Shown: in pieces, positions 1,916 to 25,657 of the stretch
How the letters are laid out: every line of letters starts with the position of its first letter
How positions within the stretch are numbered: position 1 is the first letter of the stretch
Assembly: GCF_035444585.1 (NCBI RefSeq)
Contig: NZ_DAOMOZ010000001.1
Location: 1,618 to 65,617 of the forward strand
DNA: 64,000 nucleotides
From: Agriterribacter sp.
Lineage (GTDB): Bacteria > Bacteroidota > Bacteroidia > Chitinophagales > Chitinophagaceae
Direction of reading: 5' to 3'
Notes under the pieces: model-generated
The model's database searches: none
What the model saw: only the letters and a program-made list of their open reading frames with translations
What the model was told of the DNA's origin: nothing
Made by a program: the position numbers and the translations under genes

Positions 1916-2692
1916 ATGAAAATAAAAATTGATAAAACCCAACGAATGGGAAGACAACGCGGCGGTTTCGGGATACAAATTCTGTATCCCGGCCTCAGTC
2001 TGCCGCAATCAACCGACACAGGATTTGCAACGATAGGTCGGATAGACCACGCCAGGATTTTACCCGGCGCCTTGATTCCGATGCATCCGCATATAGATGA
2101 TGAAATACTCACTTATCTGCGAAGCGGAAAGGTAAACCACCTTGATTCGGAAGGGATTAGCGAAACCATTTCCAATCATAAACTAATGCTGATGAATGCG
2201 GGAGTCAGCTTCTTTCACGAAGAATTGGTGTTGGAAGAAGGTGGAATCTTACAAGGGTTACAAATCTTTATCCGCCCGGAAAAAGCATCACTCCAACCCA
2301 AGGTTCAGTTTTTGGAATTGGATGAAGTTTATAGTATCAACCAATGGCGGAAAATAGCAGGACATAAAGAGGATGCACCGTTAACCATCAGAAGTCGAAC
2401 GCAGATATGGGACTTACGGTTGGAAAAAGGCAAACAAATAGAATTACCCGAACCATCGGATAGCGATATCGCCTTTCTGTTTTACGTGTTCTCCGGCAGC
2501 GTATCCCTGGATGGAAATATCATTTTAAAAACGGGTGACAGTATGTTGATTGAAAAAGAAAATCTACAGTTTTCAGCGATTGAAACCAGCAATATTGTAC
2601 TCTATGCCACCCAAACAACGTCGGCTCATTTCGATGGCGGAATGTACAGCGGTAATCAAAAGTTGTTGGTGAATAGTGAAAGCCTGTATTAG
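1916..2692 (+). CDS. Pirin-family bicupin protein
   Basis: MHPHxDDEILTY, MNAGxxxxHEE and LQIFIRP pirin metal-binding motifs. Confidence 0.85.
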   Translation: MKIKIDKTQRMGRQRGGFGIQILYPGLSLPQSTDTGFATIGRIDHARILPGALIPMHPHIDDEILTYLRSGKVNHLDSEGISETISNHKLMLMNAGVSFFHEELVLEEGGILQGLQIFIRPEKASLQPKVQFLELDEVYSINQWRKIAGHKEDAPLTIRSRTQIWDLRLEKGKQIELPEPSDSDIAFLFYVFSGSVSLDGNIILKTGDSMLIEKENLQFSAIETSNIVLYATQTTSAHFDGGMYSGNQKLLVNSESLY

Positions 2693-2701
2693 CTGTAGCC
2701 T

Positions 2702-3466
2702 TCAACCCCGCTTCACCCAACTCACTCCATAATACAGCAGCCGTTCTTCCATTTGTTTATACACTTTTTGTTTCAACATTTCTATATCGTTTAAAGTTAA
2801 GCCGCTTACCGCAATCTCTTTCATAAAAACTGCCCTGCTTTTGCCTGGTGTAAGGGTGAATGGTTTTCCATAAGGCATTCTGTTGTATACATCCAGGAAC
2901 AAAACGGGTTTAATGGGAGTTTGTGTTTCAATGGCTATGCGGAAGGCGCCATCAAAAAAAAACTTGAGCGCATTACCGGTTTCATTGAATGTTCCTTCGG
3001 GGAATATTAAGATGGAAATATGTTTTCTCAGCACAGCTTTTAACCTGCTTACACTTTTTAAGCGGTCTGCCGCATTGCTGCGGTTTACCGTTACTATAGC
3101 ATTTTTATAGATATAGCCAAATACCGGAATGCCGGCAGTTTCCTTTTTCCCTAAGGCACGTATGGGTTGCCGGTAGGCTTTTACAATTACAGCAGCGTCG
3201 AGAAAGGAAATATGATTGGTAACAAAAATATATGCCCTCTTTTTATCGTGCTGCGATTCATAAATATTCTTATGGACAATGCCTACCAGCGGGAACCATA
3301 TATCGCCCCACAACATGCAGATGCGGTATATAGCATTCCCGCCCTGTACAGGTCCCATAAAAGAAGCAATGAGCACAAACGGAAATACAATAAACATAAG
3401 CAATGCAAAGAGGAGCATTGCATATATATTATAGAGCCATAGCAGCGCTTTAACGGGCAGGGTCAT
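2702..3466 (-). CDS. 1-acyl-sn-glycerol-3-phosphate acyltransferase (PlsC family)
   Basis: NHISFLD and IFPEGT motifs; N-terminal TM helix. Confidence 0.9.
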   Translation of the reverse strand: MTLPVKALLWLYNIYAMLLFALLMFIVFPFVLIASFMGPVQGGNAIYRICMLWGDIWFPLVGIVHKNIYESQHDKKRAYIFVTNHISFLDAAVIVKAYRQPIRALGKKETAGIPVFGYIYKNAIVTVNRSNAADRLKSVSRLKAVLRKHISILIFPEGTFNETGNALKFFFDGAFRIAIETQTPIKPVLFLDVYNRMPYGKPFTLTPGKSRAVFMKEIAVSGLTLNDIEMLKQKVYKQMEERLLYYGVSWVKRG

Positions 3467-3691
3467 GACCGGTCATATTCTTGTTGTGATAAATAACGAG
3501 CTAATTGTAATATACGGTATCTTTTTGTGAGAGGTGACATAACAAAAGTAAAAAACGGATCGTTCCCTGAATGGTTTAAGCGGTACACGGGCATCTGTAA
3601 AAACAGTATATGCGAACAGACCTTTCTTTCACTTCTCTCTTTTTATCTCAGGCATAGGAATGCGGTACATTATCGTTAGCTGATCGTTATA

Positions 3692-4084
3692 TCAATTGCA
3701 ATTGCATTCCCATTCTTCATTCATATCTATACAGGTAATAACTGCCATTCCCCGTTTTGAAGGTGCAAAAACAATGCGTACGTGCTGACCATCATTCGTT
3801 ATCCCTTCCAGAGCATATTTGGGATCCGGTTTCGAATGCAGATCACTTTTACTGTAATTGATCTCTCCTTTTTGCAGTATCTCTTTTACTTCGGCATCGT
3901 CAATATGCCTGCAGCCCATTCTGCACCGGGCATGGCGCGTATAAATAAGTGGTTTGAGATTCCGGTTAAAGCTGCTGTCTTTTACTACACCCTGCCGGAT
4001 CGGATCATTGTGGTAATACAACCAGAGCAATGCGCAGCTTACCAGTAGTAAAATGACGTACCGGGTAAAACTTTTCTTTTTCAT
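3692..4084 (-). CDS. Membrane-anchored DUF4258-like protein
   Basis: N-terminal TM; YTRHARCRMxCR and YALEG...RIVFA...VITCID pattern. Confidence 0.6.
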   Translation of the reverse strand: MKKKSFTRYVILLLVSCALLWLYYHNDPIRQGVVKDSSFNRNLKPLIYTRHARCRMGCRHIDDAEVKEILQKGEINYSKSDLHSKPDPKYALEGITNDGQHVRIVFAPSKRGMAVITCIDMNEEWECNCN

Positions 4085-4085
4085 T

Positions 4086-4967
4086 TTAAGATATTATCAT
4101 GCCCATAACATCGGCAAGCGCAAGCAATTCCGTTTGCTTGTACAGATTGTCGCCGGTATCAAAACATTTGGCCAGTTCTTCCAGAAGAAACTGCAAAATG
4201 AGCCTGTGGTCCATTGGCTTGAAATAGGATGTAGTGATGGGGACGCCTATTTTTTTGAAATAATTTTCTACATCTTTATGCGTATATACGTGACCGTTCA
4301 TAGGGTCAACATAAAAATGTATATTATTGTTGTTTTCCTTTTTAGGATTAAAATAGTCGTAGGAAGTGTCAAAATACGCGAGCAGGTACTGGCGTGGGAT
4401 GTTAATTGCCTTTACGGGAATATCAAGGAGTCCGCATAGCAACTGGTATATGATACCGTTCATTATCGAATTGCCGCGTTTTGTTTCAAGCACTTTGTTG
4501 ATCAGGAATTCTTCGGGGTGCTGGTAAGAAACTTCAACACCTTTAAATTTATAATAGCTAAAGAAAATACGATTGATGATATTTACCTGTTCCAGCGCGG
4601 TAAGATAGCTGTTGAGTTCGAGCCAGATATTGCGTTTTATTTTTTCTATTTCCTGTAAAACCGGTGTGTCTGCCAGGTGGGGATACTGATATTTTGCCAC
4701 AAGCAATGCTCCTTCCAGCAGATCATGGTGCGTTGCTTTGGCATATCCTGAAATATCGGCCTGTAATTCATGAAAATGGAGCCGGTGGATGAGCAACTCA
4801 ATCTTTTCCTGGACCATTTCGTCAGGCGTGTTTTCCCATAACTGCTCCAGGTTGGGAATGATGGGCCTGCCGTAGCTCACGATCCGGTTGCTCACCGTAT
4901 CAAATACTTCATTGTCGGGATCATCTATAAGATGCAGCAAAGCGTTTATTTCACGGGTTTCTTCCAT
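4086..4967 (-). CDS. Transglutaminase-like (SirB1/Transglut_core2) protein
   Basis: ALLHLIDDPD N-terminus; INKVLETKRGN, INIPRQYLLAY and FYVDP segments typical of the family. Confidence 0.72.
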   Translation of the reverse strand: MEETREINALLHLIDDPDNEVFDTVSNRIVSYGRPIIPNLEQLWENTPDEMVQEKIELLIHRLHFHELQADISGYAKATHHDLLEGALLVAKYQYPHLADTPVLQEIEKIKRNIWLELNSYLTALEQVNIINRIFFSYYKFKGVEVSYQHPEEFLINKVLETKRGNSIMNGIIYQLLCGLLDIPVKAINIPRQYLLAYFDTSYDYFNPKKENNNNIHFYVDPMNGHVYTHKDVENYFKKIGVPITTSYFKPMDHRLILQFLLEELAKCFDTGDNLYKQTELLALADVMGMIIS

Positions 4968-5169
4968 GGGAACTACGAATAAGGTATAGACGCATGAATC
5001 TGTCTTTTATTGTAAAAGAATTTTGATAAATATCGGTTGTGCAAACGGATATCTCCTATTCTTTTTTTCCACAGCAGGTGAACAAACAGTAAAGGAAGCG
5101 TTAATGAAATGAAAATAGGGATAGATCCCGGTACATAATAGCCTGGTCATGAATTGTTGATCCTGTTAG

Positions 5170-6543
5170 CTAAAAGACGCCCGTATTATAATACATTAAC
5201 TTAATTGTATCGGCAGGAGTTGGCTTCCTGTTCCAGTGCGGATGTAGGGCAAGTGCCGTACCCAGGGCAGTTGCCTGTGCTACAGATGCGGCGTATACTT
5301 CTATACCCCGAAAGGCTTCTGCCAGCAAATGCATATACAGCGGGTTTTTGCCAAATCCCCCATCCACAAAGATCCTTTTTACGTTAGTGCCCTCCAGCAC
5401 CAGGTTGGTAGAACTGATCTGGCGACTGATGATATCGAGTATAAGCTGGTGATAGGCCTCTTCATAGTTGTTGAATGAGCTGAGGTCTCTTTCAGAAAAA
5501 GCCGTTATGGAAGACGCTTTTTTTGCAGGGGCTTCCGGCCGCGACCGCAATGCAGCAACAATATTTTTGTCAAATTGCACAGTAATATAATGGTCTGTGC
5601 CTTTGTTAAAATGTTCGGCCAGTCTTTTTATCTGCTGCTCATGTTCGTATCCTGCAAATAATCGCGAAGCTTTTACCGGAGCCCCACGATAGGTCATATA
5701 ACACAAACAATCCTGCTGCAGCTCTTCTACTGTAAGGGGGATATTATTGAATGGGTTAAAGCTGATGGACCACGTGCCGGTTGAGAGCAATATAAAGGGT
5801 TCCCTGAAATTGGTGAGATAGGGTATAAGTGCTGCAGAGCTATCGTGAAGGCCCACGCCTGCCACGATCTTCTTTCCTGAAAGCATTAGCGTTTTTACTT
5901 TATCTGAAGCAAAAACAGGTGGAAATTTACTTATCAGCCCTTCCCTGTACACCCATTCGTGATAATTGTTTTGCGGGAAATTCCACAGGTTGGTATGGCA
6001 GCCGATGCTGGTAATATCCGAACAGGCTTTGCCGGTAAGCAAATAACTGATGTATTGCGGAAGATGCAGGGAATATGCGATCTGGTCGAACACCGCTTTT
6101 TGCTCATATTTTAAGCGGTACAGTTGCATACCCGAATTTAAGCTGCCCAATACCGGGGAGGCTGTATGCATGGAAAGCATGATCTCTCCTCCATAACGGC
6201 TATAGAATTTCTTTTTTAGTTCTTCGGGATAGGGCTTAAGGTAATTGTACAAAGGCGTTAAAGGCTTTCCGTTCTTATCAATATGTACAAAACTGGCGCC
6301 GTAGGAAGTAAAATTAACAGCCACGATATTAAATTCCTTCAGCCCGGTTATTTCAGTGAACGACTCCCTGACCCATTGTGTAAGCAGTTCGAGGTTTTCA
6401 CACGGATAGCCATCCTCGTCTGTTGTTTCGGGAAGGGTGGCGTTTTTTTCGTATACTACTTCGTATGCTTCATTGAACAGAAATACTTTTTTGTTGGTTT
6501 TGCCAATATCGTAAATGGCAATAACGGGCAAACTGCTACTCAT
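5170..6543 (-). CDS. rhaB: FGGY-family carbohydrate kinase, probable rhamnulokinase
   Basis: DIGKTNKK, GLHDSSAA, LSTGTW and VDGGF motifs; last gene of the rha operon; start moved to MSSSLPV. Confidence 0.78.
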   Translation of the reverse strand: MSSSLPVIAIYDIGKTNKKVFLFNEAYEVVYEKNATLPETTDEDGYPCENLELLTQWVRESFTEITGLKEFNIVAVNFTSYGASFVHIDKNGKPLTPLYNYLKPYPEELKKKFYSRYGGEIMLSMHTASPVLGSLNSGMQLYRLKYEQKAVFDQIAYSLHLPQYISYLLTGKACSDITSIGCHTNLWNFPQNNYHEWVYREGLISKFPPVFASDKVKTLMLSGKKIVAGVGLHDSSAALIPYLTNFREPFILLSTGTWSISFNPFNNIPLTVEELQQDCLCYMTYRGAPVKASRLFAGYEHEQQIKRLAEHFNKGTDHYITVQFDKNIVAALRSRPEAPAKKASSITAFSERDLSSFNNYEEAYHQLILDIISRQISSTNLVLEGTNVKRIFVDGGFGKNPLYMHLLAEAFRGIEVYAASVAQATALGTALALHPHWNRKPTPADTIKLMYYNTGVF

Positions 6544-6650
6544 AACTGTAAAGGTAAGCGGTAGGGGGCTGAAAGACAAAAACCGGCGTGTAAAAAGAGT
6601 ATGCATGCGGAAGAGGGATCACTCCGCCAATTCCATCCAAACTGTCATTC

Positions 6651-21816: not shown

Positions 21817-21902
21817 GAAAAGAAGAATGGTAGTGGGGTTGCGCAGAAAATCAGATCATATTTTCTGTTTTATGATGGTTTATTTCAAAATCACAATATT
21901 GC

Positions 21903-21985
21903 AATTATAGCCTTTTTAGGCTATAATTTAAAAATATAGCCTTTTTAGGCTATATTTTGAGAATATAGCCTTTTTAGGCTATATT
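21903..21985. repeat. Three identical 20-bp palindromes TATAGCCT-TTTT-AGGCTATA at a 29-bp period (candidate operator array)
   Basis: Copies at 21906-21925, 21935-21954 and 21964-21983, ending 22 bp before the ATG at 22006. Confidence 0.93.
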
Positions 21986-22005
21986 TGAAATGAAAACCAT
22001 AGCAT

Positions 22006-22617
22006 ATGTCTCTTGCCGCCGTTATAACCGCTGATATTGTAAACTCCACGGTTCCCGGAACTGCCATGGGAAAGAAGCTGGTAGCACGGCTCAGCACTGT
22101 TTTAAAAAATTATAAATTCGAATTCTATCGCGGCGATAGTTTCCAGGCGTATGTTAAAGATCCTTCAGCGGCATTAAAATTAGCCATCCGGTTGAGAACC
22201 GCGGCCAAAAGTTTTTCCGGCATATACGATGTGCGCATCAGCATAGGAATAGGCAAAGCGGCCAGGAATGTGCAAGCTTTGCGAACTGCCAGCAGTGAGG
22301 CTTTCATCTTATCGGGAAGAATGTTTGAACAGCTAAAAGATGATCAGCGCTTATGGATCCAGTCGGCCAATGAAAACGCGAATATTGCTTTTAGGGTTAT
22401 TGCATATTTCACGGATTATATCCTAAAACGGTTAACATCAAGACAGGCTGAAGTTGTGCTGGAGCTTTTGAAGGAGCAGACCCAGACAGCGGTATCCCAA
22501 AAGCTAAAAATAAAACAGTCTACCATCAATAAACATGCGCAGTCGGCAGGGTGGGCGGAAATAGAAAAGATATTGCACGAATACAATCAAATGATCATTC
22601 AATTTAATCCGGCATGA
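22006..22617 (+). CDS. SatD-like protein: nucleotide-cyclase-fold N-terminus plus C-terminal HTH
   Basis: VITADIVNST, FYRGDSFQ and VRISIGIG resemble class III cyclase motifs; LTSRQAEVV...TQTAVSQKLKIKQSTINKH is HTH-like. Confidence 0.75.
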   Translation: MSLAAVITADIVNSTVPGTAMGKKLVARLSTVLKNYKFEFYRGDSFQAYVKDPSAALKLAIRLRTAAKSFSGIYDVRISIGIGKAARNVQALRTASSEAFILSGRMFEQLKDDQRLWIQSANENANIAFRVIAYFTDYILKRLTSRQAEVVLELLKEQTQTAVSQKLKIKQSTINKHAQSAGWAEIEKILHEYNQMIIQFNPA

Positions 22618-23318
22618 GCACCATCTGGCTGATAAAACTGATCCTGTCGCACCTGCTGGCAGACTTTGTACTGCAACCGCGAAAATGGGTCAATGATCGC
22701 TGCTCGAGGCATTTTTCCTCTCCCTGGCTCTACCTGCATACTTTGATAGCTGCCGCATTGGCACTGGTGCTTACGGGCTTTCAATACTGGCATTTTGCTT
22801 TGGTCATCTTTGTATCGCACACCCTTATTGACGGATGGAAATCGTACCGGCCTCAAACTGTATTGTATTTCTTAACAGACCAGCTAATGCACCTGCTGGT
22901 TATTATAGCCTGCTGGTATTATGCTTTTTATACCATTGCGGATATAAAGGAATGGTTGCAGGCAACCGGCAACAATCATCATTTCTGGATCATAACAACA
23001 GCCTATGTATTTTTGAGCTTTCCGGCGGGCATTATGATCGGGCAAATGACACGTAAATGGAGCGACCAGTTGCCCCGCAGTGCCGGGCTTGCCAATGCAG
23101 GCAAGTGGATCGGTATTTTAGAACGCATCCTTATCCTCACTTTCTTACTGCAGGATCAGTATGCAGCGATCGGCCTTCTGATTACGGCAAAGGGATTGCT
23201 CCGGTTCAGCGAAAAAGACAGGCAGGAAGAAAAAACCGAATATGTGCTGATCGGATCACTGATCAGCTTTTCCATATCTGTGATAACAGGGATTGTTGTA
23301 AAATATCTTGCTACCTAA
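22614..23318 (+). CDS. DUF3307-family His-rich membrane protein
   Basis: SHLLADFVLQP, YLH, SHTLID and DQLMH; C-terminal AGKWIGILER...AKGLLRF...EYVLIGSL; ATGA overlap with the SatD-like gene. Confidence 0.78.
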   Translation: MSTIWLIKLILSHLLADFVLQPRKWVNDRCSRHFSSPWLYLHTLIAAALALVLTGFQYWHFALVIFVSHTLIDGWKSYRPQTVLYFLTDQLMHLLVIIACWYYAFYTIADIKEWLQATGNNHHFWIITTAYVFLSFPAGIMIGQMTRKWSDQLPRSAGLANAGKWIGILERILILTFLLQDQYAAIGLLITAKGLLRFSEKDRQEEKTEYVLIGSLISFSISVITGIVVKYLAT

Positions 23319-24707: not shown

Positions 24708-25657
24708 ATGAAAAGAATATGCTTTATCGTTTACCTTGCTTTTATAGCATTTGAGTTAGATGCACAAATAAAATGGGTGAGGGTTGATTCGTTGTTTGGG
24801 GATCTGCCCGCATCCGTGCATGTTTATAGAACAACAGACCCGCTGGATGGCAAACCCAATATCGCATATTATATAGAAGCCGATCTTAAGGACAGGAGAC
24901 TGAATTTTACTTCAGATACAACCAATAAAAGGAGGCTGACCCCGCAACAGTTCTATACCAGGAACAATAACCCTGTTGTAGTGGTTAATTGTACTTTTTT
25001 TCTTTTGCCACCAATCAAAACCTGAACCCTGTAATCAAAAACAGGAAACTGGTGGGTTACGACAGGCACTCCCGGAAACAAAAAGACGGATCAACTTACC
25101 TGCATACCTTTGGCAGCGCTATAGGCATCTCCAGGCGCAGGAAGGCCGATATTGCCTGGCTGTATACCGATAGTGCAGAGGGAAAAGTGCTGGCCCTACA
25201 AAACCCGGTAAAAGCATTTGCTGATTCAAACAGCTTTTATAAACCCGGAATAAATACCGTGAATATTCTCGATTCGGGCGCTGTAAAATGGAAAATGAGA
25301 ACTGCGGTAGGCGGCGGACCTGTATTATTGCAGGAAGGTGAAATAAAGGTCACGAATAACGAGGAATTAAAATTCGCAGGCAAAGCGATTGAAGATAAGC
25401 ATCCCCGCACAGGCATGGGCTATACCAGGAACAATAAGCTCATTATCCTGGTAATAGAAGGCAGGAATAAAGGTGTTGCTGAAGGTGCCACCTTATTGCA
25501 GGAAGCGCAGTTGTTGAAGGAACTGGGCTGTTGGGAAGCGCTCAACCTCGATGGCGGCGGCAGCAGTTGCATGCTCGTGAATGGCAGGGAAACCATACAT
25601 CCTTCCGATAAAAAGCAAAGACCAGTTCCGGCAGTATTTATGATCGGAACCCGTTAA
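24708..25657 (+). pseudogene. Phosphodiester glycosidase (NAGPA-like) family protein split by a frameshift at a T7 run
   Basis: Adding one T at 24995-25001 joins the two ORFs as ...VVNCTFFSFATNQNLN...; C-terminal half has GGGPVLL, HPRTGMG, NLDGGGSS. Real lesion or sequencing error is unresolved. Confidence 0.72.

Follow-up and report, generated by a model that had tools for sequence, protein, structure and literature searches.

A SatD/SatE-like gene pair in Agriterribacter as a candidate self-repressing, toxin-antitoxin-like cassette

Described relatives of the gene pair

The gene pair studied here lies in a 64,000-nucleotide stretch of Agriterribacter sp. DNA (hereafter, the window) and resembles SatD and SatE of the streptococcal sat operon (PF16264 and PF11750) in gene order, overlapping stop and start codons and families linked by profile homology. 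Protein sizes are 221 and 238 aa in the sat operon, vs 203 and 234 aa in the window. The SatD encoded in the window differs from streptococcal SatD in being too divergent for a PF16264 match and in lacking linkage to ffh, and the streptococcal genes are linked to the window pair only by name, Pfam family, order, size, and overlap. A first-pass annotation, made from the letters of the window, had called the pair undescribed, a description that does not stand for genes already named SatD/SatE. Its remark that SatD and DUF3307 are little characterised mechanistically agreed with a literature search, which found no mechanism for streptococcal SatD/SatE. Among the papers covered, the search found none joining SatD and DUF3307, nothing joining SatD, SatE, and acid tolerance and, among the matches listed, no relevant toxin-antitoxin or Tn-seq paper on the pair; for DUF3307, only a phage ORF table was found (available part of PMC8504454).

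Knockout screens have been published for four streptococci and are cited here from the available parts of the reports. In Streptococcus pyogenes, satD, present in 178 of 249 genomes, was the only accessory gene to rank in the highest quarter for essentiality, and was scored Essential in 9/9 datasets while its sole operon mate was Non-essential in 9/9 (PMC11323703); no toxin-antitoxin reading of satD is offered in the available text of that paper. The data of PMC4440532, which make up two of these nine datasets, name the pair satD (221 aa, essential) and satE (238 aa, non-essential), with an 8-nt overlap, and place it between ddh and gid, away from ffh. In S. agalactiae, SAK_1076 (satD) was essential and SAK_1075 (satE) was not (PMC5452409). 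In S. equi, satD (SEQ1218, with 36 insertions in 648 bp) and satE were both non-essential; in that library, in which another putative antitoxin was detected, the whole plasmid stays at each insertion (PMC5452409), and the retained plasmid could silence satE. In S. mutans, where the pair adjoins ffh and ylxM, observed/expected reads in vitro were 0.41/0.21/0.21 for satD and 1.46/1.31/1.66 for satE, so that satD was depleted only and missed the authors' thresholds for essential (<1%) and compromised (1-10%) genes (PMC5806208). As far as these reports extend, satE was dispensable in all four streptococcal screens, in vivo growth of S. pyogenes included. A gene that is accessory yet essential, followed by a partner that the cell can do without, typically marks an antitoxin or else a repressor that holds down something harmful. 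This asymmetry supported the likeness to toxin-antitoxin cassettes seen in the first-pass annotation. Essentiality would also be expected of a repressor whose target is any gene that does harm on over-expression, a point that counts against an antitoxin reading.

Taken at face value, the sat names mean housekeeping genes for secretion and acid tolerance, an annotation that is repeated across papers and that fits the position of the S. mutans pair. Against such a role stand the accessory status and ddh-gid location of the S. pyogenes pair, the lack of depletion of S. mutans satE mutants, and the patchy occurrence in the window's genus and plasmid carriage described below. A function tied to the signal recognition particle (SRP) was rejected on the same grounds, and a housekeeping role is considered quite improbable.

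Panoptes (OptS/mCpol and OptE) is a two-gene system that likewise combines a small two-Asp palm protein with a membrane protein. OptE is toxic by itself, and rescue is obtained only with OptS that retains catalysis, for which two Asp are described as the catalytic residues (available part of PMC12657218). Restraint of the second protein by the first has been shown for Panoptes and would, on our reading, extend to SatD/SatE. Unlike OptS, SatD carries a helix-turn-helix (HTH) domain and is preceded by an operator array; unlike OptE, the SatE module has no Pfam family and no solved-fold match; and chromosomal SatD/SatE copies, set against Panoptes, are seldom found beside defence genes. OptS was absent among the best 50 structural matches listed for the window SatD, in which Cas10 palms tied first, and mCpol was absent among the 25 of 43 Pfam families listed for the SatD alignment A3. 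The available main text of PMC12657218, PMC12657230, and PMC13577387 mentions neither SatD nor DUF3307.

Autoregulated toxin-antitoxin operons (type II layout, or AbiE-like type IV) are alike in having the regulator first, translational coupling, and palindromic operators over the promoter, and further in the accessory-but-essential first gene and in plasmid carriage. SatD/SatE differs from them in the enzyme-like palm of the putative antitoxin, the polytopic putative toxin, and the occurrence of intact orphan "toxins".

The gene pair and its predicted proteins

The features of the locus are collected in Table 1. Overlap of the two reading frames at an ATGA (22614-22617) was verified, in agreement with the translational coupling noted earlier, and the flanking genes are indeed unrelated to the pair, encoding an S9 peptidase on one side and a 3-keto-disaccharide hydrolase and RpiA on the other. 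Close named homologues of the pair came mostly from Agriterribacter and Chitinophagaceae. Elsewhere in the window, two overlapping ORFs of 105 and 222 aa (24708-25657) apparently form one gene with a frameshift near a T run, presumably phosphodiester-glycosidase-like to judge by its motifs. The same genome holds a second SatD-like fragment (G000:C97:6004-6354) that lacks the N-terminal Asp region and a partner.

Table 1. Features of the satD/satE-like locus, in window coordinates; operators, promoter, and domains are predictions.
Feature	Position	Strand	Remarks
Operator palindrome 1	21906..21925	.	20 bp; perfect 8-nt arms, 4-nt loop
Operator palindrome 2	21935..21954	.	identical to palindrome 1; 29 nt downstream
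Operator palindrome 3	21964..21983	.	identical to palindromes 1 and 2; next 29 nt downstream
TAnnTTTG match, putative promoter	21980..21987	+	overlaps operator 3
satD-like gene (ORF1)	22006..22617	+	203 aa; palm residues 1-~141, HTH ~142-183
satE-like gene (ORF2)	22614..23318	+	234 aa; predicted two helical bundles; ATGA-coupled
DUF3307 domain	22629..22964	+	residues 6-117; H13, D17, H42, H69, D73, D89, H93; accessory
C-terminal four-helix membrane module	22974..23315	+	residues 121-234; constant SatD partner; no Pfam family
C-module conserved residues			G167, E170, R171, K193, R197, Y210, G214, S218 (satE-like ORF2)

The motifs ADIVNST, RGDSF, and VRISIGIG, read in the first-pass annotation, are all present in ORF1. 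A search with the PF16264 HMM gave no direct match to ORF1 at the cut-off, and the only Pfam signal was a weak GerE-type HTH match below cut-off (residues 142-179, E 0.003). PF16264 was matched by 6 of the 120 closest homologues listed and by 78 of the 148 members of alignment A3. The A3 profile recovered the ORF1 locus together with PF16264-positive loci over positions ~1-211, some of these loci having also contributed to the profile. As ORF1 has no PF16264 match of its own, family membership rests on the profile homology of its relatives, through which, and over its full length, ORF1 belongs with the SatD family. An NCBIfam search of the pair gave nothing meaningful; PADLOC gave only weak CARF3 matches in the HTH region of ORF1, no match for ORF2, and no match for four relatives of the pair.

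The AlphaFold2 model of ORF1 (pLDDT 96) and a profile search of the PDB both bear on its fold. The profile matched class III cyclases over positions 4-98 (E 3e-6) and LuxR/MarR-type HTHs over about 150-198. In Foldseek, the class III cyclases Ma1120 and Rv1900c ranked first (E 2e-4), and the matches included a PucR/CdaR-type regulator (3onq). In VIA-align, class III cyclases, Cmr2/Cas10 (Cmr2, Z 9.8-10.1), and GTP cyclohydrolase III (2qv6, Z 9.8, rmsd 2.9, 109 aligned) were tied at Z 9.8-10.1, and GGDEF domains reached up to Z 8.8. Among 128 paired SatD proteins, D10 and S14 were kept in 126 (two gaps), G43 and D44 in 127, and Q47 in 126, so that both Asp were present in all 126 ungapped sequences. 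Both Asp, S14, and Q47 aligned as invariant across Bacteroidota and Gammaproteobacteria. The cyclase-superfamily fold with its two Asp and the C-terminal HTH, both proposed in the first-pass annotation, were thus recovered, and the SatD domain is predicted to bind metal and triphosphate. GTP cyclohydrolase III, the Cmr2/Cas10 palm, and GGDEF domains are tied structural neighbours, the [RL]GD[ESA]FQ hairpin of SatD resembling GGDEF; SatD differs from all three in that one palm is joined to an HTH domain. The neighbours of SatD loci, scanned against PADLOC only, showed no CRISPR or riboflavin context.

Class III cyclases (Ma1120, Rv1900c, Rv1625c) share the palm fold and the two metal-binding Asp with SatD. 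Further class III positions were mapped from the ORF1-cyclase profile alignment and from the class III motif G-x-x-V-N-x-A-x-R. The purine-selecting Lys/Glu position (F40 column) was I/V/F/L in 118/128 SatD (I82/V19/F11), the Asn position (I101 column) was V/I/T/L in 106/128 (V38/I31/T31), and the Arg position (R105) was kept in only 40/128, whereas the invariant Gln47 is SatD-specific. The lack of conservation at the Lys, Asn, and Arg positions makes canonical class III chemistry unlikely, a correction to the nucleotide-making module proposed earlier. Canonical cAMP/cGMP signalling, with SatD as an adenylyl or guanylyl cyclase and SatE as sensor or phosphodiesterase, would agree with Ma1120, 3mr7, and Rv1900c being the top profile and Foldseek matches, and certain mycobacterial class IIIc enzymes are active despite non-canonical residues. 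The same residue counts and the structural tie with GTP cyclohydrolase III and Cmr2/Cas10 make it very improbable, and the canonical cyclase was rejected as a candidate.

ORF2 contains all four His/Asp motifs listed in the first-pass annotation (HLLAD, YLH, HTLID, DQLMH) and matched DUF3307 (PF11750; 90.5 bits, cut-off 23, E 1e-25) over residues 6-117 only. Its model (pLDDT 93, pTM 0.77) shows two helical halves. Across 42 SatD loci, the partner consisted of DUF3307 plus the C-terminal module in 21, of the module alone (106-126 aa) in 18, and of another N-terminus plus the module in three; in a survey of 251 genomes, the match was confined to the C-module in 26 of 75 adjacent partners. All residues invariant across 31 aligned partners (G167, E170, K193, R197, G214), as well as those kept at ≥90% (R171, Y210, S218), lie in the C-module. 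The earlier view of the His/Asp domain as the core effector was rejected, since the domain is missing from those 26 partners. Its His/Asp cluster was conserved among the long partner forms and is, judging by these alignments, real but dispensable for the system. A 134-aa phage ORF annotated as DUF3307 (available part of PMC8504454) fits a stand-alone domain. Structure searches with the partner gave no Foldseek match at E≤0.001 and, in VIA-align, a best Z of 8.1, among helical bundles; an atlas search with the C-module returned only nameless or DUF3307 clusters, below 0.9. Partners on enterobacterial, pseudomonad, and Bacillus plasmids (L048-L051, L056) were 332-359 aa long, the extra length in L048-L051 being largely a long insertion within the C-module.

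Operator array, linkage, and distribution

Within the 64-kb window, full copies of the palindrome occurred only at the three sites of Table 1 (spacing 29/29). A 28/29-bp periodic repeat was present in 95/127 SatD upstream regions vs 2/470 control upstream regions; "private", the term used earlier for the palindromes, therefore holds for their sequence, which is unique in the window, and not for their design. Operator spacing was constant across SatD loci, while operator sequence varied with the HTH. In a residue-by-base matrix, residue 171 of the recognition helix and half-site position 2 formed the top mutual-information cell (z 13.7): Gln171 paired with A in 20/23 distinct helices, Arg171 with G in 14/17, and other residues with T in 7/8. 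These counts cover 48 distinct recognition helices with arrays of at least three units, drawn from kin lineages and thus not an independent test; in some matrix rows the automatically assigned operator phase was clearly shifted, and the resulting misses were kept. Gln-adenine and Arg-guanine are textbook protein-DNA contacts, and the window SatD carries Gln171. Since HTH residue 171 and the operator base covary, SatD very likely binds its own upstream palindromes.

The TAnnTTTG sequence, which we take to be the Bacteroidota -7 promoter element, has its sole match within 21851-22010 at 21980..21987. It occurred upstream of satD in 34/72 Bacteroidota (6.9 expected) and in 11/41 gammaproteobacterial regions (2.2 expected); because of this enrichment in Gammaproteobacteria as well, its role as the promoter of the window satD is only suggestive. 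Overlap of operator 3 with this putative promoter argues for repression rather than activation, and autorepression of the operon by SatD is, from the combined sequence evidence, highly probable. The self-regulation proposed earlier thus gained support from periodic upstream repeats and covariation, and the locus shows the toxin-antitoxin operon trait of two coupled genes with operators that are, on the covariation evidence, autoregulatory.

Linkage of the two genes was as tight as the first-pass annotation would have it. In 42/42 SatD loci, the partner started -8 to +131 nt from the SatD stop codon. Seen from the partner side, 86 loci were examined, made up of 6 viral contigs from IMG/VR and the 80 best among at least 593 genome matches; SatD lay ≤150 nt away in 84 of them. 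Of the other two, one had SatD at 255 nt and one was a truncated remnant. In a survey of 251 Bacteroidota genomes that scored no more than about 12 candidates in each, 75 genomes had SatD, 78 had the partner, and 73 had both; of the 78 SatD places, 75 had an adjacent partner. The three partnerless SatD places comprised two fragments and one full-length copy (G074), the sole such case, in which both Asp were lost. Ten partner places lacked SatD: three were intact, four were found on checking to be fragmented or broken, one had internal stops, and the remaining two are probably the other halves of cassettes split between contigs. The intact orphan satE copies (G188, G204, and G101:C112; L146, L147, and L148) all came from one genus, g60, where on sequence reading they lie directly behind a ThiF-like gene; no SatD was detected anywhere in G188 or in the single-contig genome G204. 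These three copies indicate that SatE is not an obligate poison. A decayed cassette (L149, G214:C16) had an N-terminal SatD fragment running in frame into a partial, split satE. Two separate cassettes were present in each of G002, G067, and G277, with one long and one short partner form in G067 and G277 and with operator arrays of different sequence in G002.

The pair occurred in about 30% of sampled Bacteroidota and also in Proteobacteria, Bacillota, Fusobacteria, and haloarchaea; one family had it in 33 of 41 genomes, and many Flavobacterium genomes carried it at a stable site. IMG/VR contributed 6 loci, and GenBank phages gave no match to either protein query. In the window's genus, SatD was patchy (13/24 relatives). 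The cassette stood between the S9 peptidase and keto-hydrolase/rpiA genes in 7/24 congeners, two of them cut by contig ends, and in the remaining 17/17 the site was empty, with these genes directly adjacent.

Among plasmids, 23 records matched, of which 12 were examined and six were 3,770 bp long. The ColE1-type plasmid pEC34A (3,770 bp) has as annotated genes only rop, mobA, a 51-aa ORF, and the pair, which is thus its sole annotated cargo (33% GC vs 42% for the plasmid); the DNA of this pair gave no match in complete E. coli genomes. Defence or toxin-antitoxin neighbours of the pair were seen in 6 of the 11 annotated plasmid regions examined, namely Gabija, HipA with NTase-HEPN, RelE/ParE, RnlB, a type I restriction gene, and a Pycsar-type operon with a TIR gene near. 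This last operon, composed of cyclase, E2-associated protein, and effector genes, lies on a Sphingomonas plasmid (L058:6328-9193) and runs convergently to the cassette. The plasmid regions examined from Segatella, Salinivibrio, and Haloplanus held no such neighbours.

For the chromosomal and viral loci, the 607 ORFs lying ≤4 kb from 85 loci were grouped into 378 clusters, and representatives of 377 of these were scanned with PADLOC (E 1e-30). Credible defence neighbours were present at about 5 of the 85 loci, a figure without a background comparison: AbiE (L062), type I restriction-modification (L120, L126), PDC-S49 (L122), and PDC-S20 (L145), with L137 uncertain. Matches in L069, L073, L091, L101, and L124 were counted as housekeeping homologues by judgement. 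The L126 cassette (2124-6559) is flanked by the hsdS and hsdM genes of a type I restriction system, and in L120 hsdS is directly upstream of the pair. Enrichment of defence neighbours at these loci was weak or nil, which counts against a classical defence-island system; nor did any conserved neighbour in the 85-locus neighbourhood point to a pathway.

This distribution also bears on the main competing view, in which SatD senses a ligand and represses a membrane protein of use to the cell. In this view the palm would bind a nucleotide or metabolite without catalysis and thereby free the operator, and SatE would do a stress, transport, or lipid job and be harmful only when over-produced. The scarcity of credible defence neighbours, the high occupancy in one family, the stable Flavobacterium site, and the intact orphan satE copies all suit this explanation, as do the non-essential satD of S. 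equi, the Foldseek match to 3onq, and the lack of conservation in SatD of the Lys, Asn, and Arg used for class III catalysis. It accounts less well for the invariance of both Asp, S14, and Q47, with both Asp gone where the partner is gone; degenerate sensor domains mostly keep fewer residues than SatD does. The pair being the sole cargo of small plasmids, the want of a pathway-indicating neighbour, and the dispensability of satE in every screen examined, in vivo included, also speak against it, and we regard it as rather unlikely.

Proposed mechanism and implications

We favour a reading of SatD/SatE as a self-repressing, toxin-antitoxin-like cassette in which SatD restrains a potentially harmful SatE (rough probability 0.55). 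That the pair is a cassette is suggested by the empty sites, plasmid cargo, tight coupling, and Asp loss in the partnerless G074 SatD. That SatD restrains SatE is suggested by the satD/satE essentiality asymmetry and by the OptE/OptS precedent; the non-essential satD of S. equi, the S. mutans values short of the thresholds, and the orphan satE copies argue against it.

In the proposed mechanism, SatD would, with high probability, act as a dimer that uses its HTH to occupy the three palindromes at the promoter of the pair, and so set the levels of both proteins. The published screens of streptococcal orthologues make it fairly probable that SatE becomes harmful once SatD is lost. The harmful part of SatE is likely the C-terminal four-helix module, in which E170, R171, K193, and R197, in or beside the membrane, would fit either a leak that can be gated or a site for nucleotide binding. 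More tentatively, the SatD palm is predicted to bind Mg-NTP via D10/D44 and to make or hold a nucleotide that keeps SatE shut, as in OptS-OptE; two Asp are also catalytic in OptS (available part of PMC12657218), so that catalysis by SatD is possible. Alternatively to such nucleotide gating, restraint by SatD may be mainly transcriptional. The DUF3307 His/Asp domain would be an accessory fusion, speculatively with a part in metal-dependent signal turnover.

A further-reaching possibility, which we consider doubtful, is that SatD represents a new palm oligonucleotide synthase family whose constant nucleotide holds SatE shut, making the cassette a Panoptes-like guard of independent origin that also represses its own operon. 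Depletion of that nucleotide by a phage sponge or nuclease, or loss of the cassette, would then let SatE depolarise the cell. That phage is the trigger of SatE appears similarly unlikely.

The pair is common, with SatD in 75 of 251 Bacteroidota genomes and the partner encoded in at least 593 genome stretches. Its HTH-operator pairs, with fixed 28/29-bp geometry and a Gln-A/Arg-G code, constitute a natural set of orthogonal repressors. The proposed restraint addresses, in testable form, a published puzzle, namely that satD is the sole accessory essential gene of S. pyogenes (available part of PMC11323703): if SatD restrains SatE, this would explain why an accessory satD is essential in group A and group B streptococci. 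If the palm makes a nucleotide, SatD would be a new second-messenger synthase family, paired with a membrane effector without a solved-fold match in the searches described. If the proposed reading is true, SatD/SatE would constitute a new kind of toxin-antitoxin or phage-guard module.
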